DNA of 64,000 bases from Candidatus Saccharimonadota bacterium (lineage in GTDB: Bacteria > Patescibacteriota > Saccharimonadia > Saccharimonadales > Saccharimonadaceae): the NCBI GenBank assembly GCA_027311865.1, contig DAICYC010000001.1:33880-97879 (forward strand), in the 5' to 3' direction. Every line of letters begins with the position of its first letter. Position 1 is the first letter of the stretch. A program made the translations under genes and the position numbers. The notes beneath the pieces were generated by a model that worked only from the letters and a program-made list of their open reading frames with translations, made no database searches and was not told the DNA's origin. Shown here in pieces: positions 13,233 through 64,000 of this stretch.

Positions 13233-13580
13233 ATGCAAGATAATATCCGTCAATTGATCAAACAAATTGAGGCCGACGAGGTTAACATCAAGTCGCTCGA
13301 GAGCCAAACCGAAATCGAGCGTGTTCGCATGCAAGATGCCTATAATGCCGGTGACGAAGCTAGGGGTAAATTCTCCGAAACACAAGTTCATAAAAACGAG
13401 TTGCGGATTAATGAACTTCAGAGTGAATTATCTAATCTTCAGAACCTAAAAGCCGACGCCGAAGCCCGCCTCGCCAGCCTCGAACAAGAACGAACCAATC
13501 TAGTTACCGAACACGAACAACGGCTAGTCCAACTTGATACCGAAATATCCCGTCTCAAAGGTGGTATGACCGCCCTCTAA
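13233..13580 (+). CDS. Small coiled-coil protein, unknown function
   Basis: TATAAT box and AGGAGG SD upstream. 115 aa of heptad-rich sequence. Confidence 0.55.
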   Translation: MQDNIRQLIKQIEADEVNIKSLESQTEIERVRMQDAYNAGDEARGKFSETQVHKNELRINELQSELSNLQNLKADAEARLASLEQERTNLVTEHEQRLVQLDTEISRLKGGMTAL

Positions 13581-13628: not shown

Positions 13629-13705
13629 GGCAGCGTAGCTCAGTTGGTTAGAGCGTAGGACTCATAAGCCTAAGGTCACTGGTTCAATCCCAGTCGCTGC
13701 TACCA
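13629..13705 (+). tRNA. tRNA with CAU anticodon, elongator tRNA-Met-like
   Basis: Cloverleaf folds by hand: GGCAGCG acceptor, GTAGCTCAGTTGGTTAGAGC D-arm, CTCATAA anticodon loop, GGTTCAATCC T-arm, encoded CCA. Resembles E. coli metT. Confidence 0.9.
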
Positions 13706-20906: not shown

Positions 20907-20984
20907 CGCGGGGTGGAGCAGCCCGGTCAGCTCGTGTGGCTCATAACCACAAGGTCGTAGGTTCAAATCCTACCCCCGCAACCA
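20907..20984 (+). tRNA. Initiator tRNA-fMet (CAU)
   Basis: CGCGGGGTGGAGCAGCC...CTCATAA...GGTTCAAATCC...CCCCGCAACCA. A C1-A72 mismatch and near identity to the E. coli metZ architecture. Confidence 0.92.
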
Positions 20985-23642: not shown

Positions 23643-23718
23643 GGGGCTGTAGCTCATCGGTTAGAGCAGGCGGCTCATAACCACTTGGTAGATGGTTCGA
23701 TTCCATCCAGCCCCACCA
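23643..23718 (+). tRNA. tRNA with CAU anticodon (Met, or Ile2 after lysidine modification)
   Basis: GGGGCTG acceptor pairs with CAGCCCC, CTCATAA loop, GGTTCGATTCC T-arm, encoded CCA. A TGGTATAAT extended -10 lies upstream. Confidence 0.88.
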
Positions 23719-51012: not shown

Positions 51013-51828
51013 CTAGGACAACACGCGCACCGTCGGTGACGACACGTTCGGGAACGCGCCGTCGATCTCGTCGATCGAGAAATCGAGTTGACCTTCGCTG
51101 TAGCTCAGGTACGGCACCCTAGCAACGCCATCGACCTCAAAACGAAGGCCCGACATTTGAAGCGAAAAGCCCCGGCCGTAGTCCAGCCACTGTCGCGGCC
51201 ACTTCGGCGCCATCACGATGCCCATCAGCAACTCAGCCCAAGCCAACTGCTTGCCATCACGGCGAGCGGCGGCAACAGCCTCATCAGCTGACAAGCCTTC
51301 GTAGTCGAAGGGGGAAATCGCCACCCAGCGGATACCGGGCTCGATCGATCCAATCGTCAGTGCCGGCGCGGACATCTGTCGATTGCCGAACGGGCGACCA
51401 TCGAACATGGCTTTGAGCATCGGGGCGAGCTGGCGCTTGCAGTCGAGGTCGTCTTCCTGTTCAATGACATACCACAACTCCGCCATGGTGCGGACCAGCC
51501 CGCTCTTGTCGCCGAGTCCCGGTAGGTAGATCATCGGCACTACCAACTCGTCGTCTGAGTAGGTATCGGGGTTGGGCAGCGGCTGAGTCGAGTCGAGTCG
51601 CCAGCACTGCCGACGACACAACACCGTCAACAACTGACGCATGTGCATCGGAGTCGGCCGCCAGTCATCGGACCGGTGCCGGCACTTTTCAATGAGGTAC
51701 TTGCCCTCGGCGACCTTCGAAACGCCCTCGTAGGCTTCATCGAAGGAAACTGTCTTGAGGTGAACATTCCGCTTGACGCTCTCGAGCGCCGATCCGAGCA
51801 TGTTAGCCTCGGCCTGACTAGTCATCAT
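51013..51828 (-). CDS. About 271-aa protein, unknown function
   Basis: GC3-rich ORF. SD GAAAGG precedes the ATGATG at 51828/51825; the ORF is open to 51891. Confidence 0.5.
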   Translation of the reverse strand: MMTSQAEANMLGSALESVKRNVHLKTVSFDEAYEGVSKVAEGKYLIEKCRHRSDDWRPTPMHMRQLLTVLCRRQCWRLDSTQPLPNPDTYSDDELVVPMIYLPGLGDKSGLVRTMAELWYVIEQEDDLDCKRQLAPMLKAMFDGRPFGNRQMSAPALTIGSIEPGIRWVAISPFDYEGLSADEAVAAARRDGKQLAWAELLMGIVMAPKWPRQWLDYGRGFSLQMSGLRFEVDGVARVPYLSYSEGQLDFSIDEIDGAFPNVSSPTVRVLS

Positions 51829-51931
51829 TGACCTTTCGTTGGTTGGGGCACAAATGTGCTGTTTCAAGGTGCTAAGCATATTAGAACACACTGAGCGTTA
51901 TTTTTCAATCATTGAAAGTCTAATTAATCGA

Positions 51932-56560: not shown

Positions 56561-57325
56561 CTACGGCTGAAGTGTGCCAGCAAATACCTGCCAGGCAAGC
56601 AGTGACTTGGCGACCAGACTCAAAATAATATAAACGAACTCACCGTACAGATAATCTTTCCACGGACCAACTTTCTTGTACTGTAGCATCATGTTGATAG
56701 CGAAACAGTTAAAGAATACGAAGATAGACACAAAGATCCAGTAAACGAAGTCGGGTGCCTTGCTACCTTGATCGGCCCCGAGCCACATATAGAACGCTAT
56801 CGCCACCCACGGGAGGATTCCAGCGATACAACCGACCCAGTAACTTAGCCAGTTGGTGCGTCGAGTTGTCTGATTGTGAACCTCCATAACTAGACCCATC
56901 AGGTTCATAATGGCCGTCAAGCCAAAAATCATCACCAAGCTCATCAAATCATAGATGCCGACTAGTAGTGAAATCGCCACCATCATAACGCTTGCCGAAA
57001 CTGAATATTCGATCCAACGAGCCCGGTTGATACCGTCCTTCAAACCAGCTTCATAACGTTTACGATAGTAAGTCGCCACACTGAAATGGGCGATTGACGA
57101 CAACAAGAAGAAACCGGTCACCAAGAGCGGCAACGAAACTTCAAACAGCGTGGTCGTAGCTGGTTCCAGCGACTGCGTCTGAGTGTTAAACTTCAGAAAA
57201 TTCCCGATAACCGGGAATAACGATTCTTTACTGAGAATCAAGATAGCGACGGCTTGCGCTAAATGTAAAAATCCAGCGATGATATTGTAGCGGTGAAGCT
57301 TGTTAACCGTAAGTTTTTTAGTCAT
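56561..57325 (-). CDS. Heliorhodopsin
   Basis: Seven TM helices. RWIEYSVSASVMM, GCIAGILPW and LSLVAKSLLAWQVFAGTL (candidate Schiff-base Lys) match the HeR-48C12 sequence as I remember it. Confidence 0.85.
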   Translation of the reverse strand: MTKKLTVNKLHRYNIIAGFLHLAQAVAILILSKESLFPVIGNFLKFNTQTQSLEPATTTLFEVSLPLLVTGFFLLSSIAHFSVATYYRKRYEAGLKDGINRARWIEYSVSASVMMVAISLLVGIYDLMSLVMIFGLTAIMNLMGLVMEVHNQTTRRTNWLSYWVGCIAGILPWVAIAFYMWLGADQGSKAPDFVYWIFVSIFVFFNCFAINMMLQYKKVGPWKDYLYGEFVYIILSLVAKSLLAWQVFAGTLQP

Positions 57326-57364
57326 AGTGTCATCATAACGCACGATGACAGCTTCGACCAGTCG

Positions 57365-58548: not shown

Positions 58549-59037
58549 ATGAAATTACCGCAGAAAGAATATCTTCAGAGTGCTATGTTTGGCTTTAACG
58601 ATGCCCTAGTATCAACTACCGGTGTTATCGTCGGCGTCAGCGCTGGTACTGGTAACAAAGAAGTCGTACTGTTGGCTGGTGCAGTGACGATTCTCGTCGA
58701 GGCCCTCTCGATGGGCTCAGGTCAATATCTTAGCTCCAAGTCAGCCCATCAACTCGACCGATCGGACGCCAGTCGGATTCCGTTGATAAGTGGCTTAATC
58801 ATGTTCGGCTCTTATTTCTTAGCCGGACTAGTTCCTTTACTGGCAATTATTTTCACACCAGTCGAACATGGCCGGAGTGTCGCCATCATAGCAGCACTCG
58901 CCTGCCTGCTCGTCTTAGGTTACGTCAAAGGAAAAATTGTCCAAGTTTCACCGCTGCGCAGCGCCGTGGAGGTCCTTGTCATCGGTGGCGCCGCCACGAT
59001 TATTGGTATCGTCGTTGGACAAATCTTCGCGATTTAA
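58549..59037 (+). CDS. VIT1/CCC1 family metal (Fe/Mn) transporter, membrane domain only
   Basis: GFNDALVSTTGVIVGVSAG ... LSMGSGQYLSSKS blocks and C-terminal TM helices. Confidence 0.7.
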   Translation: MKLPQKEYLQSAMFGFNDALVSTTGVIVGVSAGTGNKEVVLLAGAVTILVEALSMGSGQYLSSKSAHQLDRSDASRIPLISGLIMFGSYFLAGLVPLLAIIFTPVEHGRSVAIIAALACLLVLGYVKGKIVQVSPLRSAVEVLVIGGAATIIGIVVGQIFAI

Positions 59038-59534
59038 CTAGTCCACGACCAGCCGGTCGACCAAAGTCCTGTCGAACCGCTATACCCCTGCATCACAGCC
59101 GTTGTCGCATCATTCACCCACGTTTTGCCAATTGTCGTACAGGTTGCCGCCCCGCTAATACCAACCCCTTCAATCAGTCCGGTTGAGGTTTGGATATAAC
59201 CCTTACCTGATTTTGATCGCAGACCGAGAGCATAAGTCTGATTGGCTTTGTCGACACAGTAATAGACATTGTTCTGCTTGAGATCGTAGGCTTTTTTAGA
59301 AAACTTGAACTTCGGCATTTCGGCATTGTTCTCTGGATAGCGACCTAGGTCGACTTTTGCCATCTCGAGTGCTCGAGCGGCATTTGTCGCATCAGCCGCC
59401 ACAGCTGAATCATTCGACTTGGCGGTCACCCGGCTATAGGTGACGGCCGTCACTGCTGTAAGTATGGCGATTATGATAATTACAATTATTAATTCAACTA
59501 TCGTGAAACCGTTTGTAGCTTGTTTGTTTGTCAT
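59034..59534 (-). CDS. Type IV pilin-like protein, Trp-rich C-terminus
   Basis: MTNKQATNG/FTIVELIIVIIIIAIL. The C-terminus is ...GLWSTGWSWTS. Confidence 0.8.
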   Translation of the reverse strand: MTNKQATNGFTIVELIIVIIIIAILTAVTAVTYSRVTAKSNDSAVAADATNAARALEMAKVDLGRYPENNAEMPKFKFSKKAYDLKQNNVYYCVDKANQTYALGLRSKSGKGYIQTSTGLIEGVGISGAATCTTIGKTWVNDATTAVMQGYSGSTGLWSTGWSWTS

Positions 59535-59621
59535 CGAACCCCACGGCTGAAGTTAGTATTTACGTCTTGGCTACATTGTAGCATAAGCTGATTGACGACC
59601 ATCAGGAGTCTATGACTCGGT

Positions 59622-59928
59622 CTACAAACCAGGCACGTTGACTAGTGCTGGAACATATATCTCAGTCCCTGCGCCTGATGTTCCTTGATTTAGTTGACCG
59701 TAACTGTTCTTACCCCAGCAGTAAACCTGCTTGTCAGCCAAAGCGCAAGCGTGTTGGTGACCAACACCTATCGAAGTGATTATTTTGCCGTAAAGCTGCC
59801 CTTCGACGAGCGTAGTCACCAACTCCAAGCTGAATGATAGAATTGTAGCCCCAACAATAAACCTGACCGTTAGACACAACACAGGCATGATCTCTGCCAA
59901 CTCCTACCACACAGGAAATATCGGACAC
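59622..59928 (-). pseudogene. Frameshifted fragment encoding two RCC1-like beta-propeller repeats
   Basis: One frame reads GRDHACVVSNGQVYCWGYNSIIQLGVGDY. The pilin frame reads TTLVEGQLYGKIITSIGVGHQHACALADKQVYCWGKNSYGQLNQG. Only two blades are present, split over two frames. Confidence 0.55.
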
Positions 59929-60302
59929 CGACCTTCGGTTATCACATTCTGATCACTATCGATAAAGTAACTTGCTCCACTCGCAGCCGATTGAGCCGTC
60001 ACACAAAACTTACTACCTTCCGTGTTATAACTCAAAATTACGCCGTCGCCAGGCTTGAAACCAGTGATTGAATCGAGAGAGGCTGGATAAGCCCCCTTCT
60101 GAGCAAATTCAGCATCGGCCAGCTCAGCCGCCGTCGACAAGTCCTTCTTTAGCTTCGCCACCACAGCTCGTTCCGAAATCGAATTAGCACCTACAAAAAT
60201 GAGAGCAGCCAAGATACCGAGGATCACGATAACCGCCAATAGCTCCACGACCGTAAAGCCAGTCAATCGACGGCCTTCGGGTTGGTATGCGGCATATTTC
60301 AT
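59904..60302 (-). CDS. Type IV pilin-like protein
   Basis: MKYAAYQPEGRRLTG/FTVVELLAVIVILGIL. Confidence 0.8.
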   Translation of the reverse strand: MKYAAYQPEGRRLTGFTVVELLAVIVILGILAALIFVGANSISERAVVAKLKKDLSTAAELADAEFAQKGAYPASLDSITGFKPGDGVILSYNTEGSKFCVTAQSAASGASYFIDSDQNVITEGRCPIFPVW

Positions 60303-60435
60303 GATTAATTACCCCAGCGAATTTAGCTTATGCTTAGATTGTAGCACGAAAGTCAATGAAATATGATCAGGTGGGACCTCAACTCATGAATTCATTCAGC
60401 AACCGTCACACGACTATTATATCAACCCCTCCATC

Positions 60436-60464
60436 TTGATAAAAATCACTACTTGTGTTATAAT
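60436..60464 (+). promoter_or_regulatory. Sigma70-type promoter TTGATA-17-TATAAT (cassette 1)
   Basis: Read directly: TTGATA aaaatcactacttgtgt TATAAT. Confidence 0.6.
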
Positions 60465-60512
60465 AGTACTAGTACACAAACGTGTATCTCGTTATTTAAG
60501 AAAGTGGTGAAC

Positions 60513-60791
60513 ATGCTGGACACGGACTTCCTCCGTCAGTCAGCCGACTACGTCGACGCTGAGCGCAAGCTCTACGCCGCCCGGCTCCAGTACGACAAGG
60601 CCAGCACGAACTATCGATCGCTCTCCCTGAGCTGCGATTACTGTAGCGACAGAGAAGCCGAACGGCTCAATGAACGAGCTGAAGCCGCCCGCCACGAGTT
60701 TGCCGAGGCCCGCAAGGTCCTCGAAGCTGCTCGGGACAACCTCGAAGCAGTCCGGGAGCGTCTGCTCCAAACCGCCAATCACGCCAACTAG
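60513..60791 (+). CDS. 92-aa helical protein, unknown (cassette 1, gene A)
   Basis: GGTGA SD. Ala/Arg/Glu-rich heptad sequence and GC3-rich codons. Confidence 0.55.
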   Translation: MLDTDFLRQSADYVDAERKLYAARLQYDKASTNYRSLSLSCDYCSDREAERLNERAEAARHEFAEARKVLEAARDNLEAVRERLLQTANHAN

Positions 60792-60801
60792 GAAGGTCCA
60801 G

Positions 60802-61233
60802 ATGTCGAAAATCGATATCGCCGTTCTGCGCAAAGAGCGCACCGACGCACTCAGCGAACGGAATCGGATTCATGATTCACGCGAGGAAGCTCGCCAGGAT
60901 GTCGACCGGCTGCGTCGTCTGTGTCTCGACACCGACAACGACCATCACCGGGCACTCAACGACTGCATGAGGATCGAGGAGATCATCTACGAGATCGACG
61001 ATCCGGCGATGGAAACCGAGGCCGCCATGGCAGCCCATGACGAACTGGAAGCAGCTCAAGTGCGACTGTCTCGAATCGAGGAGCGATCCGACAACTACGT
61101 CCAGGCGCTTCGCGAAGCCGAGTCGATCGTCAGTCAGCTGGACAAAGAGTCCAGCCAGGCCTCGCGTCGTTTCGGCGACGCCGATCAGCGGGTTCGACAG
61201 GCCCGGCGCAGGCAGCGTCACCATCACAACTAA
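60802..61233 (+). CDS. 143-aa helical protein, unknown (cassette 1, gene B)
   Basis: GGAAGG SD 5 nt before the ATG, which lies 10 nt after the gene A stop. Confidence 0.55.
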   Translation: MSKIDIAVLRKERTDALSERNRIHDSREEARQDVDRLRRLCLDTDNDHHRALNDCMRIEEIIYEIDDPAMETEAAMAAHDELEAAQVRLSRIEERSDNYVQALREAESIVSQLDKESSQASRRFGDADQRVRQARRRQRHHHN

Positions 61234-61240
61234 ATAACGA

Positions 61241-61271
61241 AACCCACCGTCTCAACCACGGTGGGTTTTTC
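61241..61271 (+). terminator. Intrinsic terminator (cassette 1)
   Basis: CCCACCGT-ctcaacc-ACGGTGGG followed by TTTTT. Confidence 0.75.
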
Positions 61272-61293
61272 ATTTTGCCGTAATATTTAGTGA

Positions 61294-61322
61294 TTGCTAA
61301 AATTCACTTCTGATGATATAGT
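61294..61322 (+). promoter_or_regulatory. Sigma70-type promoter TTGCTA-17-TATAGT (cassette 2)
   Basis: Read directly: TTGCTA aaattcacttctgatga TATAGT. Confidence 0.6.
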
Positions 61323-61377
61323 AACCTCACCGCCCATCCGAGTGCGGTTTCGTTCTTTGATAGGAAAAGGGGCAACG

Positions 61378-61683
61378 ATGTCCATTGGAATTCTCAGCAT
61401 CAAAGATGTTGAGAGGTACGACGATCTCGTCGAACGTGAAGATTCGGCCAAGGCCGAACTCAAGTCCGCCGAGCAGCACATGATGAATGTTCTCGATAAC
61501 CGCGCTTCAAGCCCAGCCGATCGCAGTGCGGCCATCGAGCGCCATGATCAGGCCATCGACAGCCTGAATCACATCACCGCCGAAATCGATCACTACTACA
61601 ACCGTGATGCGATGGAAGCCTGCAAGCGCAGCATCTGCAAACACAGTCTCGACGTCGACCTCGGCTTCGAGTGCTGCGACTAA
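61378..61683 (+). CDS. 101-aa helical protein, unknown (cassette 2, gene A)
   Basis: AAAGGGG SD and a heptad-rich sequence ending in ...GFECCD. Confidence 0.55.
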   Translation: MSIGILSIKDVERYDDLVEREDSAKAELKSAEQHMMNVLDNRASSPADRSAAIERHDQAIDSLNHITAEIDHYYNRDAMEACKRSICKHSLDVDLGFECCD

Positions 61684-61698
61684 CCCCGAGAGGATGAA

Positions 61699-62016
61699 GT
61701 GAACGTCAACAAACGAGATGCCATCAAGGCACTCAGTGCCAAACGCGACGACTGTCGCCGGCGCTCCAATACGACCAAGCGATTCGTCAACGAACTCGAA
61801 GTCGCCCGGTCGCGTCTCATCGTCCGGCGGGATGAACTCGATCGATTCGACCTCGTCAGCATCGAAGCAATCGATGCCGAAATTGAGGCCGTGACGGTTA
61901 AGATGAACAACCTGAAGCAGGAAGTTCGCGACTGCGCAGTCGAAGAAGCTCAACTCGAGCAGACAATGATTCGGCTGAAAATCGATGGTTTTCTGCCGCG
62001 TCTGGTTCGCGCCTGA
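61699..62016 (+). CDS. 105-aa helical protein, unknown (cassette 2, gene B)
   Basis: GTG start preceded by GAGAGGA, 15 nt after the gene A stop. Confidence 0.5.
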   Translation: MNVNKRDAIKALSAKRDDCRRRSNTTKRFVNELEVARSRLIVRRDELDRFDLVSIEAIDAEIEAVTVKMNNLKQEVRDCAVEEAQLEQTMIRLKIDGFLPRLVRA

Positions 62017-62035
62017 CCCCCAGCCCTCAGAACGA

Positions 62036-62068
62036 AAAACCCACCGTCTCATCCGCGGTGGGCTTTTC
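62036..62068 (+). terminator. Intrinsic terminator (cassette 2), near-copy of the cassette 1 terminator
   Basis: CCCACCG-tctcatccg-CGGTGGG followed by CTTTT. It shares AAACCCACCGTCTCA with the terminator at 61241. Confidence 0.75.
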
Positions 62069-62081
62069 ATTACCACTTAAC

Positions 62082-62110
62082 TTGATTATTTCGTGTATCT
62101 ATTTTATAGT
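62082..62110 (+). promoter_or_regulatory. Sigma70-type promoter TTGATT-17-TATAGT (cassette 3)
   Basis: Read directly: TTGATT atttcgtgtatctattt TATAGT. Confidence 0.6.
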
Positions 62111-62160
62111 AGCCTTACGCACAAAACCGTGCCATCGCTCTTTCACAGTGAGGTGAAATA

Positions 62161-62580
62161 ATGGAATTGCCCACCGCCGACAATCGATTGAAGGCTGAAT
62201 TCGACCGACTCCGGTCCGAGCTCGAATTGGCTGAAGTCCAACTGGAAGAGTCCAACCGACTCGTCCAGTCCAACCAGAACGAGATGCGCCAGATCCAGGC
62301 CGACCTCGACAACGCCGACCTGGCCCGCTACGAGGCCACGACGACACTGGAAAAGCTCGAGACCCAGCAGCCAGTTGATGACGACCTGGCCCTTCGCATC
62401 AGCGAATACAAGGCATTGGTTGATGAAGCCATTCGAAACATCCAGCGCCTCGAGCTGGAACGTGGCGAAGCCGAAGTCAACCTGTCACTGGCCAACCATG
62501 GCCGCATCGAAGCTCTTCACCGGGTCAGCAGGCTCCAAACCAGCCTGCGAGCCTTTGACACTTTCCAGATCTCGGTCTGA
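62161..62580 (+). CDS. 139-aa coiled-coil protein, unknown (cassette 3, gene A)
   Basis: GAGGTGA SD and a continuous heptad pattern. Confidence 0.55.
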   Translation: MELPTADNRLKAEFDRLRSELELAEVQLEESNRLVQSNQNEMRQIQADLDNADLARYEATTTLEKLETQQPVDDDLALRISEYKALVDEAIRNIQRLELERGEAEVNLSLANHGRIEALHRVSRLQTSLRAFDTFQISV

Positions 62581-62585
62581 CCGAG

Positions 62586-62861
62586 ATGAATCGAGTCGAA
62601 GGCCCTGCACCGTTGACCGCCGCGGACGCCGACGAAGCCCACCAAGCTGTTCGCCATGAGCTCAACCGAGCTCTGGCCGAACAGTGTCGAATCAGGCAAC
62701 TCCTCGCCAGCAAGCAATCGATCGATCCGGTCTCCGGGCAGAACTTGCTGACCGCCAAAGCCGCAATCAATGCCGATATCCACGACATTGAAAAGCGACT
62801 GCAGCAGGCCAGTCGTGACCGTCAACTCGCTCATCAGCGAGACGAACGTACGTCACACTGA
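62586..62861 (+). CDS. 91-aa helical protein, unknown (cassette 3, gene B)
   Basis: ATG 5 nt after the gene A stop. Confidence 0.5.
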   Translation: MNRVEGPAPLTAADADEAHQAVRHELNRALAEQCRIRQLLASKQSIDPVSGQNLLTAKAAINADIHDIEKRLQQASRDRQLAHQRDERTSH

Positions 62862-62884
62862 GCTCACCTATCCACTACGAGCGA

Positions 62885-62917
62885 AGCCCCCGCAGCTAGA
62901 TACTGCGGGGGATTTCA
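62885..62917. terminator. Bidirectional hairpin terminator between cassette 3 and arcC
   Basis: CCCCCGCAG-ctagata-CTGCGGGGG. Confidence 0.7.
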
Positions 62918-63865
62918 TTAGTCGGTAATTATCGTGCCCGCTCGCCCCCGAATCGCATCATAAGCACGGGTTGGCGTCGTGATAATAGCCCGTCGACCGT
63001 CACCCGATTTAACAAATTCAAGCGACGCTTCGATTTTCGGCAACATACTTCCAGCCGCAAACTGACCATCGGCGATATAGTTCTTGGTATCAGCAATGGT
63101 TAATCGGCCAAGTGGAATCTCTTGTGGTGTATTGTAGTTGATTGCGACTTGATCAACTGCCGTCAGAATGAGCAGGATGTCGGCATTAATCGCTTCGGCT
63201 AATTTTTCGGCCGCAAAATCTTTATCAACCACGGCTTCAGCGCCGCGCAAACTGCCGTCAGCCTCGACCACAACTGGTATTCCGCCACCCCCGGCCGCCA
63301 CAACGATGTAGCCTTCGCGAACGAGAGATGCGACAAAGTCTTTTTCAATGATATCAATTGGCCGGGGTGAAGCCACAACTCGTCGCCAGCCACGACCGGC
63401 ATCTTCTTTAACGATAAAGTTTTGACGTCCGGCAGCTGCCTGCTCGGCGGCTGCGCGAGTTTCGTAAAATTGCCCAACCGGCTTGGATGGTCGATGAAAA
63501 GCCTCATCATCAGCTCGAACCAACGACTGCGTCACAACCGTCGCTACCGATTTGGCAACGCCAGCCCGACGCAGCTCGTTGCCAATAGCCAGCTGGAGCC
63601 AGTAGCCGATCGACCCCTGGCTCATTGCAACGCAGCTATCGATAGGTAGCGTCGGCATATCAGCTGTATTAATCGCCTCTTCGCGCAGAATGATATTACC
63701 AACCTGTGGTCCATTGCCGTGCACTACGACAATTTCATGACCATCGCGAACTAGAGCGATTAATTGACGAGCGGTTTGTTCCGCCACTCGAATCTGAGCT
63801 TCAGCCGACGCTTCACCATCTTTCTGTAGCGCGTTACCGCCCAGTGCAATAACGATTCGCGCCAT
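62918..63865 (-). CDS. arcC: Carbamate kinase
   Basis: MARIVIALGGNAL ... VVVHGNGPQVG ... GGGGIPV blocks. Confidence 0.92.
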   Translation of the reverse strand: MARIVIALGGNALQKDGEASAEAQIRVAEQTARQLIALVRDGHEIVVVHGNGPQVGNIILREEAINTADMPTLPIDSCVAMSQGSIGYWLQLAIGNELRRAGVAKSVATVVTQSLVRADDEAFHRPSKPVGQFYETRAAAEQAAAGRQNFIVKEDAGRGWRRVVASPRPIDIIEKDFVASLVREGYIVVAAGGGGIPVVVEADGSLRGAEAVVDKDFAAEKLAEAINADILLILTAVDQVAINYNTPQEIPLGRLTIADTKNYIADGQFAAGSMLPKIEASLEFVKSGDGRRAIITTPTRAYDAIRGRAGTIITD

Positions 63866-63869
63866 TAAC

Positions 63870-64000
63870 TTAAGCCGCTCCTGAGAGTAAAGCCGAAACT
63901 GTCAAAACGACAATCGAGATTACCGAAACGATAACCATGAACTTCCAGGTCCGCTTGAGGTAGATGCCGTATGAAACCTTAGCCAAGGCTAGGCCACCCA
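63870..64000 (-). CDS. C-terminal end of a membrane protein (partial; possibly a transporter of the arginine deiminase operon)
   Basis: Hand translation gives ...GLALAKVSYGIYLKRTWKFMVIVSVISIVVLTVSALLSGAA-stop. The stop lies 4 nt before the arcC ATG. Confidence 0.5.
   Translation of the reverse strand, partial: GGLALAKVSYGIYLKRTWKFMVIVSVISIVVLTVSALLSGAA

Follow-up and report, generated by a model that had tools for sequence, protein, structure and literature searches.

A three-operon island of paired, predicted coiled-coil proteins in a Saccharibacteria genome

EsxA and EsxB (PF06013) are small helix-turn-helix hairpins of ~100 aa that are encoded by adjacent, co-transcribed genes and carry no signal peptide. 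Lap1 and Lap2 (LapA3/LapA4, PDB 8GMH) are hairpins of ~137-143 aa that are also encoded in pairs, with an LXG toxin gene downstream. The stalk proteins FliJ, YscO and CdsO each consist of one long antiparallel coiled-coil hairpin (140-160 aa) and have a flagellar or type III secretion system (T3SS) context. Type II toxin-antitoxin (TA) operons, finally, combine two small genes that are tightly coupled and have a promoter of their own, and are accessory; known toxin-antitoxin families are widely and patchily distributed. Here we analyse a locus that resembles each of these systems in part. It is located at positions 60436-62919 of a 64,000-nucleotide stretch of contig DAICYC010000001.1 (Candidatus Saccharimonadota bacterium, assembly GCA_027311865.1), referred to below as the window. 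The locus is flanked by a pilin gene and arcC, and contains three head-to-tail units of 770-830 bp, each with two genes for small proteins.

As a whole, the locus is most like the paired helical-hairpin operons (EsxA/B, Lap1/Lap2) or, in its architecture, type II TA operons. We file it under no known family, because the tests for a WXG motif or profile match, an LXG toxin, a type VII secretion system (T7SS) or T3SS context in the partially annotated window, and a toxin or antitoxin domain were all negative. Instead, we interpret it as a lineage-specific accessory island of three independently transcribed, insulated two-gene operons, which would encode co-regulated, paired helical binding proteins. 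We consider this interpretation, taken as a whole, to be somewhat better than even (probability about 0.55).

Three expression units and their six genes

All three units are located on the + strand (unit 1, 60436-61277; unit 2, 61294-62071; unit 3, 62082-62919) and comprise a sigma-70-type promoter, a leader of 42-49 nt, two open reading frames (ORFs) of 91-143 aa and a strong intrinsic terminator. Promoter 1 (60436-60464; TTGATA-17-TATAAT) has an extended TG and 11 of 12 matches; promoters 2 (61294-61322) and 3 (62082-62110) have the hexamers TTGCTA-17-TATAGT and TTGATT-17-TATAGT, respectively. In itself, the number of promoter-like matches in this region of 5 kb is not raised (6 versus 3.5 expected), but the placement of the promoters is non-random: they are located 20-25 nt past the previous terminator and 49-56 nt ahead of the first start codon. 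The terminators, at 61239-61277 (12-bp stem plus T-run), 62034-62071 and 62887-62919 (9-bp stem with 8 GC pairs, followed by a T-run), or with narrower limits at 61239-61269, 62040-62062 and 62887-62911, have fold z-scores of -4.1, -5.4 and -4.1, and for none of them did any of 200 shuffled sequences fold equally well. Terminator 3 adjoins the stop codon of the convergent arcC gene. These results confirm the three promoters, six ORFs and terminators given in a preliminary description of the window that was based on the letters of the DNA, and support an organisation into three insulated two-gene operons; the ORFs are as described there once two of the starts are shifted by 1 nt.

The first genes of the units encode acidic proteins: A1 (60513-60791; 92 aa, pI 5.4), A2 (61378-61683; 101 aa, pI 4.8) and A3 (62161-62580; 139 aa, pI 4.65). 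The second genes follow after gaps of 10, 15 and 5 nt in units 1, 2 and 3, respectively. B1 (60802-61233; 143 aa, pI 5.7) has a basic, His-rich C-terminal tail, B2 (61699-62016; 105 aa) has a GTG start and is basic (pI 9.1), and B3 (62586-62861; 91 aa), which is preceded by a weak Shine-Dalgarno (SD) sequence, is neutral (pI 7.0). A3 and B1 are predicted to be coiled-coil hairpins. A helix-loop-helix is predicted for A1, with a CxxC motif in the putative turn (loop SLSLSCDYCSD), and for B3 (loop KQSIDPVSGQN), and A2 ends in a Cys-rich C-terminal tail (C-x5-C-x12-CC). Trp is absent from all six proteins and with it the WXG motif, whose absence the preliminary description had noted; they contain 0-2 Gly residues, their grand average of hydropathy ranges from -0.5 to -1.1, and none has a hydrophobic stretch. 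The deviating codon usage reported there was also recovered: the G+C content at third codon positions (GC3) is 0.61-0.74 for the six ORFs versus 0.52 +/- 0.055 for the 45 long ORFs of the window, which places them 2-4 standard deviations above the mean. We rejected expression-linked codon bias as the cause, because GC3 of recA and atpA is 0.50-0.51.

Strain variation provides strong evidence that the six ORFs are genes. Four independent metagenome fragments (L164/L165, L166, L167 and L168) carry the same locus with 97-99% nucleotide identity. Within the annotated frames, 30 of their differences from the window are synonymous and 21 are non-synonymous, which corresponds to a ratio of non-synonymous to synonymous polymorphism (pN/pS) of 0.21 (binomial p = 5e-8 against neutrality). 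The ratio is 0.03 for B1 (10 synonymous, 1 non-synonymous), 0.12 for A2, 0.17 for A3 and 0.18 for A1; the values for B2 and B3 are considered further below. The sole indel is an in-frame one of 6 nt, by which the B1 tail loses exactly two His codons, and none of the six ORFs is disrupted in any of the fragments that span it. The in-phase antisense frame, which is that of the long antisense ORFs, has a pN/pS of 0.65. The antisense frame that shares the sense wobble positions has a value of 0.25, as it must, and holds no gene-spanning ORF. Sense and antisense ORFs cannot be told apart by their base composition at the codon positions, but they can by substitution patterns, SD sequences, promoters and terminators. 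The ORFs are true + strand coding genes, and not antisense artefacts of GC-rich DNA, an explanation that the preliminary description had considered.

The non-coding parts of the units are conserved as well. The fragments contain 0-4 intergenic substitutions each, versus 5-12 expected at the synonymous rate (P = 0.022, 0.00011, 0.0056 and 0.006). Leader 2 has no substitution in fragment L166, for which 11.7 are expected at this rate across the intergenic DNA. Therefore, the promoters, leaders and terminators themselves are under constraint. Fragment L167 has four substitutions in the upstream region (60432, 60444, 60469 and 60470), all outside the hexamers of promoter 1, which are intact.

A sequence element is common to the three leaders (leader 1, 60471-60512; leader 2, 61329-61377; leader 3, 62117-62160), whose lengths of 42-49 nt assume that transcription starts 7 nt past the -10 box. 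Each contains a pyrimidine-rich block 24-28 nt ahead of the first start codon: TCGTTATTTAAGAA in leader 1 (60489-60502), TCGTTCTTTGATAG in leader 2 (61350-61363) and TCGCTCTTTCACAG in leader 3 (62135-62148). Exact matches to the pattern TCGYTNTTTNANAG (TCGYTNTTTNAnAG) are present in the 64-kb window only in leaders 2 and 3 (0.1 expected), and leader 1 carries the pattern with one mismatch at the equivalent position. In the minimum free energy folds the block pairs with the SD sequence in leaders 1 (GTGGTGA) and 3 (GAGGTGA). The predicted probability that the SD is unpaired is 0.02-0.23 for leader 1 at 4-37 °C, and over the range of 4-45 °C it increases from 0.02 to 0.41 for leader 1 and from 0.13 to 0.28 for leader 3. 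This occlusion of the SD may weakly point to translational gating and to a common regulation of the three operons.

In these respects the leaders resemble fourU and ROSE RNA thermometers, in which an upstream U-rich block pairs with the SD via many G-U and A-U pairs and accessibility climbs with temperature, as is predicted for leader 1. Unlike these thermometers, the leaders have no match in Rfam (scan of 59000-64000), their folds are not above those of shuffled sequences, and leader 2 is ambiguous. The short 5′ hairpins reported for the leaders in the preliminary description exist (in leader 1 at ~60472-60487, and also at the 5′ end of leader 3); the leaders are slightly shorter than the 45-55 nt given there. 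We did not count these hairpins as evidence, because the leaders fold no better than shuffles.

Predicted folds and comparison with known hairpin and toxin-antitoxin pairs

AlphaFold2 models made without an alignment predict the same long antiparallel two-helix hairpin for A3 (helices 6-67 and 74-138; mean predicted local distance difference test score (pLDDT) 93.6) and B1 (helices 6-65 and 73-142; pLDDT 93.5). In both models helices of 60-70 residues are connected by a turn of 6-7 residues, and the length of the hairpin is estimated to be about 9 nm. A crude helix-propensity scan of the other proteins suggests a helix, a central break and a second helix for A1, A2 and B3; for B2 the layout is less clear.

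Database searches assigned none of the six proteins to a family. None reached the curated threshold in Pfam, NCBIfam, PHROGs or PADLOC, and the sub-threshold profile matches were to coiled-coil regions of SMC, JetC, LmuB, FliJ, HlyD and similar proteins. Sequence searches of the PDB with the six proteins returned only tropomyosin, myosin and de novo designed coiled coils, all with E > 0.01; the best matches of A1 were the de novo designed ones. Foldseek searches of the PDB and BFVD with the B1 and A3 models retrieved many hairpins, none at E <= 0.001, including YscO, FliJ, colicin R-domains, SH3BP5, ciliary microtubule inner proteins, LapA3/LapA4, ISG75, tape-measure segments and PI3K iSH2. 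In agreement with this, the fold predicted for B1 and A3 is generic, and Foldseek, which the preliminary description had proposed as a check, gave no confident family. The statement made there that the proteins are undescribed holds: they have no match in curated families or among PDB sequences, and no homologues beyond the same species.

The pairs had also been likened to Esx/WXG100 proteins and to toxin/immunity modules. In both cases the resemblance is limited to structure or architecture, and the defining features that could be tested are absent. With regard to the first, the products might be Esx/WXG100- or Lap-like secretion substrates or targeting factors, that is, helical-hairpin heterodimers that leave the cell by non-Sec export and act on the host of the epibiont. 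Saccharibacteria are monoderm epibionts of Actinomycetota, and the host side uses Esx-type helical effectors in the interaction (PMC13622651). The hairpins studied here are encoded in pairs, and the B1 model aligns with LapA3/LapA4 of the TelA-LXG complex (8gmh) with TM scores of 0.81-0.84 for chain E and a root-mean-square deviation of 2.1 Å. However, the Foldseek E-value for 8gmh_E is 0.23, and YscO, ISG75, PI3K iSH2 and other hairpins match equally well. Since the proteins lack Trp they have no WXG motif; in addition, they match neither DUF3130/DUF3958 nor PF06013, the latter not even at E <= 1.

Size and context also differ. Two members are ~140 aa rather than ~100 aa; the confident models are those of the 139-143-aa proteins (B1 and A3), and a hairpin of the ~100-aa type is suggested for the 91-105-aa proteins only by the crude helix scan. 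Among the annotated ORFs of the window, which is partially annotated and covers 64 kb of the genome, no LXG toxin, EssC/EccC or other T7SS component was seen. The pairs differ from Lap1/Lap2 in having their own promoter and terminator, and what follows them is not an LXG toxin gene but the terminator and then the next cassette or arcC; the island as a whole is flanked by a pilin gene and arcC. Moreover, in contrast to EsxA-EsxB, a heterodimer is here presumed. Taken together, we consider a secretion-related role of this kind very improbable.

As to the stalk proteins, A3 and B1 share with FliJ, YscO and CdsO the single long antiparallel coiled-coil hairpin, with TM scores of 0.80-0.85 to YscO (4mh6) and Foldseek E-values of 0.03-0.09, which are not significant. 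Membership of the FliJ family was rejected: the match of A1 to TIGR02473 scores 16.6 bits versus a cut-off of 50.45, and the locus is bordered by pilin genes and the arc operon. Unlike the genes of these stalk proteins, the locus has no flagellar or T3SS context.

The second resemblance, to type II TA operons or toxin/immunity pairs, would make the locus a set of three stacked addiction modules in which an acidic upstream protein neutralises a more basic partner. Each unit indeed has two small, tightly coupled genes (gaps of 5-15 nt) with their own promoter and terminator, and in two of the three pairs, those of units 2 and 3, an acidic protein precedes a basic or neutral one (pI 4.8 then 9.1, and 4.65 then 7.0). 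Moreover, the units are accessory and of patchy occurrence, and the evolution of B2 and B3 is fast. Against this, both partners of unit 1 are acidic, and no toxin, antitoxin or DNA-binding domain was found in Pfam, NCBIfam or PADLOC, where only sub-threshold coiled-coil noise appeared; a recognisable toxin or antitoxin fold is likewise missing. The six proteins are plain coiled coils without a plausible catalytic or membrane-active element. Furthermore, no homologue of them beyond the same species was found in the sequences compared, whereas TA families are wide as well as patchy in distribution. These differences make a TA system an improbable, though not negligible, explanation.

Distribution, origin and possible role of the island

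Homologues of the proteins were found only within the species. Comparison of B1 and A3 with 5.8 billion proteins through a word index yielded only same-lineage variants that are at least 98% identical; the only homologue of B1 is a 99% identical variant. An exhaustive HMMER search with A2 of 1.84 billion cluster representatives retrieved A2 itself and one other protein, P0011, a 1107-aa amidase with eight near-identical repeats. The latter was rejected as a homologue: each repeat is 25-26% identical to A2 and scores only ~27 bits, and these scores are summed. The repeats, which align ungapped with A2 residues 42-94 (61501-61659), were read as peptidoglycan-binding repeats, and no Pfam family, PG_binding_1 included, matched A2 at E <= 1. 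The similarity is probably due to chance, inflated by the repeats, and is a weak lead. Clusters of the six proteins at 90% identity have 1-2 members each. No relative of A1, B1, B2 or B3, and no match to the terminator core described below, was present in IMG/VR, and A1, B2 and B3 matched nothing among GenBank phages and PLSDB plasmids. A phage or plasmid origin is thus unsupported by matches in these three collections.

The arc locus gave similar results. tblastn searches with the six proteins in an arcC-anchored set of 160 genome and metagenome loci found nothing. In the two closest relatives, L084 and L085 (arcC 79-81% identical; L085 is part of an 828-kb contig), no cassette lies within 10 kb of arcC, and the arcC stop codon marks the exact end of synteny with the window. 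In addition, 2.5 Mb of other arc neighbourhoods contain no small ORF of comparable coiled-coil composition. Because of these homologue, arc-locus and small-ORF searches, we conclude that, as far as the sequences compared indicate, the cluster belongs to a single species-level lineage and is an exception in its surroundings. The module is not widespread, since the cassettes are absent beside arcC in both closest relatives and in ~160 other arc loci. Conservation of the ORFs in relatives, on which the claim was to be judged, exists, but within the species only.

The preliminary description also called the module repeatedly amplified. According to this explanation, the three cassettes derive from one ancestral promoter/two-ORF/terminator unit, of which the coding parts diverged beyond recognition while the regulatory parts stayed alike, either because only the heptad pattern was constrained or because of conflict-driven selection. 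The three units are alike in architecture and size, the architectures modelled for B1 and A3 are virtually identical, and the protein lengths fall into matched classes (92/91, 101/105 and 143/139 aa). They also have non-coding modules in common. The 35-nt core of terminators 1 and 2 (61240-61274 versus 62037-62071), which takes in part of the loop, is 91% identical between the two and bears out an earlier statement; this core is absent elsewhere in the window and, among all fetched loci, occurs only in contigs of the same locus. Promoters 1 and 2 agree in 12 of the 17 spacer positions when counted by eye (MAFFT aligns these promoters differently), and all leaders carry the motif. Weak tandem 21-nt duplications of one heptad each are present in A1 (60719-60757; LEAARDN/LEAVRER) and A2 (61530-61571; AIERHDQ/AIDSLNH). 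They fall under the threshold of TRF, which found no tandem repeats, and hint that the coiled coils may have grown through heptad duplication.

The coding sequences tell otherwise. All 15 pairwise local protein alignments are within 1 standard deviation of shuffled controls (z < 1), BLASTP with composition correction detects no similarity among the six proteins, and blastn detects none in the coding DNA; the only DNA repeat that this search detected among the cassettes is that of the terminators of units 1 and 2. The order of the long and the short partner is reversed between units 1 and 3. Copy-number variation, for which a search had been proposed, was not observed: the variant fragments that bridge junctions keep the order of the window (L166, units 1-2; L164, units 2-3; L167, pilin gene to unit 1). 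Finally, a 91% identical terminator beside dissimilar coding DNA fits gene conversion or terminator re-use at least as well as duplication of a unit. The amplification is therefore unproven; we regard a diverged one as possible but rather doubtful.

We return to the interpretation of the locus as an accessory island of insulated operons. The three operons would probably answer a common signal, because a leader element is common to them. Each would make two small, soluble, cytoplasmic antiparallel coiled-coil hairpins, as modelled for B1 and A3 and supposed for the other four proteins. Given gaps of 5-15 nt, the two products of a pair would be made together and in similar amounts, and they may assemble into hetero-oligomeric helical bundles that would act through binding other macromolecules and not through catalysis. 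Pairing of the pyrimidine block with the ribosome-binding site might gate translation, for instance by temperature or a trans-acting factor, although we consider this step weak. An accessory role, for example in conflict, stress response or host interaction, seems more fitting than housekeeping, because GC3 is atypical, relatives lack the cassettes, and B2 and B3 change rapidly.

Several points weigh against this interpretation. With respect to the proteins, the binding of A to B is deduced from gene coupling alone, the arm lengths within pairs are mismatched (92 with 143 aa and 139 with 91 aa), and the structures of A1, A2, B2 and B3 derive from the crude helix scan. With respect to the leaders, leader 2 has two competing folds, and the block pairs with the SD in one of them, which makes occlusion there ambiguous, and whole leaders fold no better than shuffled sequences (z = -0.65, +0.26 and -1.39). 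As for the distribution, A2 alone was searched exhaustively, B1 and A3 via the word index, and A1, B2 and B3 only against the phage, plasmid and viral collections and the fetched loci. With respect to the genes, pN/pS is 1.13 for B2 (2 synonymous and 7 non-synonymous substitutions, all of the latter conservative) and 0.63 for B3 (2 synonymous, 4 non-synonymous), so that these two genes may be unconstrained.

B3 is the least certain gene of all: NCBI annotates it, but gene calls on the Logan and ENA contigs take an antisense ORF (62517-62834, - strand) in its place. This 105-aa ORF lies antisense to B3 and the 3′ end of A3 and lacks an SD. The strain substitutions do not discriminate between the two (2 synonymous and 3-4 non-synonymous in either frame). 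We favour B3 as the likely gene, because it starts 5 nt after the A3 stop codon and its product is like the other five, and because the antisense ORF is without an SD and overlaps the constrained 3′ end of A3.

These rates also bear on the explanation that the ORFs are functionless or decaying, i.e. young de novo or foreign genes that are transcribed without having a role. In favour of it, B2 and B3 evolve at a near-neutral rate, the six genes are orphans with an atypical composition and idealised helical sequences, and pseudogene-like RCC1-repeat fragments adjoin the island. Strong purifying selection on B1 (0.03) and on A1, A2 and A3 (0.12-0.18) argues against it, as do the intactness of all six ORFs in the strain fragments that cover them and the conservation of the regulatory DNA beyond the synonymous rate. 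Loss of function or absence of it for the island as a whole appears most unlikely.

More speculatively, the cassettes could be diversified copies of one module that form a new class of paired coiled-coil hairpins for conflict with the host or with phages, jointly switched through their leaders. The products might then be binders or decoys of helical effectors, for example of Esx-secreted proteins of Actinomycetota (PMC13622651), and the combination of a conserved regulatory shell with an unrecognisable payload would be the signature of an arms race. We hold this to be a long shot.

If the pairs prove functional, they would represent a new sequence family of paired helical-hairpin proteins. A large fraction of the genomes of Saccharibacteria, which belong to the candidate phyla radiation (CPR), is unannotated, and the pairs would then be one of few concrete, testable ways into it. 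Independently of this, the locus is a clean natural example of three insulated expression units with common cis-elements, which is useful for work on promoters, leaders and terminators in an uncultivated phylum. Unless a function is shown its general significance is limited, since it concerns one species-level lineage and a generic fold.

Neighbouring genes and other features of the window

The window is 99.97% identical to contig NCEI01000011.1 (assembly GCA_002280635.1), and a Logan contig from SRR5352531 also matches it. Genes present in the window include pilM, recA, ruvB, a class A penicillin-binding protein gene and F-type ATP synthase genes, besides a heliorhodopsin gene (56561-57343, - strand), located 3 kb from the island, and two genes whose products have the pilin-type N-terminal methylation motif. 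From heliorhodopsin and the literature on freshwater CPR bacteria, we infer a freshwater origin of the organism. Past the end of the window, NCEI01000011.1 continues with the remainder of the arginine deiminase operon (arcA, ornithine transcarbamylase (OTCase), DcuC and arcC); the closest relatives of arcC are those of Saccharibacteria metagenome-assembled genomes, which identifies the organism as a Saccharibacterium. Beyond the arc operon, a gene at 16611-17726 of L003 encodes a product that matches bacterial eRF1-like (baeRF) families. In L084 and L085 (10940-17000), arcC is followed by a 251-aa ORF on the same strand, which was read as a putative membrane-anchored tetratricopeptide repeat protein, and then by long repetitive sequence.

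The island is not bordered by direct repeats, and no integrase was seen next to it, so that it bears no marks of a mobile element. On its upstream side are two pilin-like genes (59034-59534 and 59904-60302, both - strand). A 26-nt element with copies at 59558-59583 and 60321-60346 (73% identical) is located just upstream of each of these genes and is probably a common pilin promoter or leader. Between the two pilin-like genes, at 59622-59928 (- strand), two short overlapping ORFs in different frames both contain RCC1-repeat motifs (YCWG..N..GQLG), which suggests a frameshifted or truncated RCC1-repeat gene and gene decay beside the island.

One other small ORF of the 64-kb window, at 13233-13580 (+ strand; 115 aa), has a coiled-coil composition like that of the cassette genes. 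It is located just upstream of a tRNA-Met gene, its sub-threshold Pfam matches are to coiled coils only, and unlike that of the cassette genes its GC3 is native (0.47). A 292-aa ORF at 51013-51891 (- strand), without a Pfam family, has the highest GC3 among the long ORFs (0.74) and is in this sense an outlier like the cassette genes; it, too, may be of foreign origin or an orphan. The only tRNA genes of the window are three tRNA-Met genes with a CAT anticodon, located within 10 kb (13629-13705, 20907-20984 and 23643-23718), which presumably represent the initiator, elongator and lysidine-Ile types.

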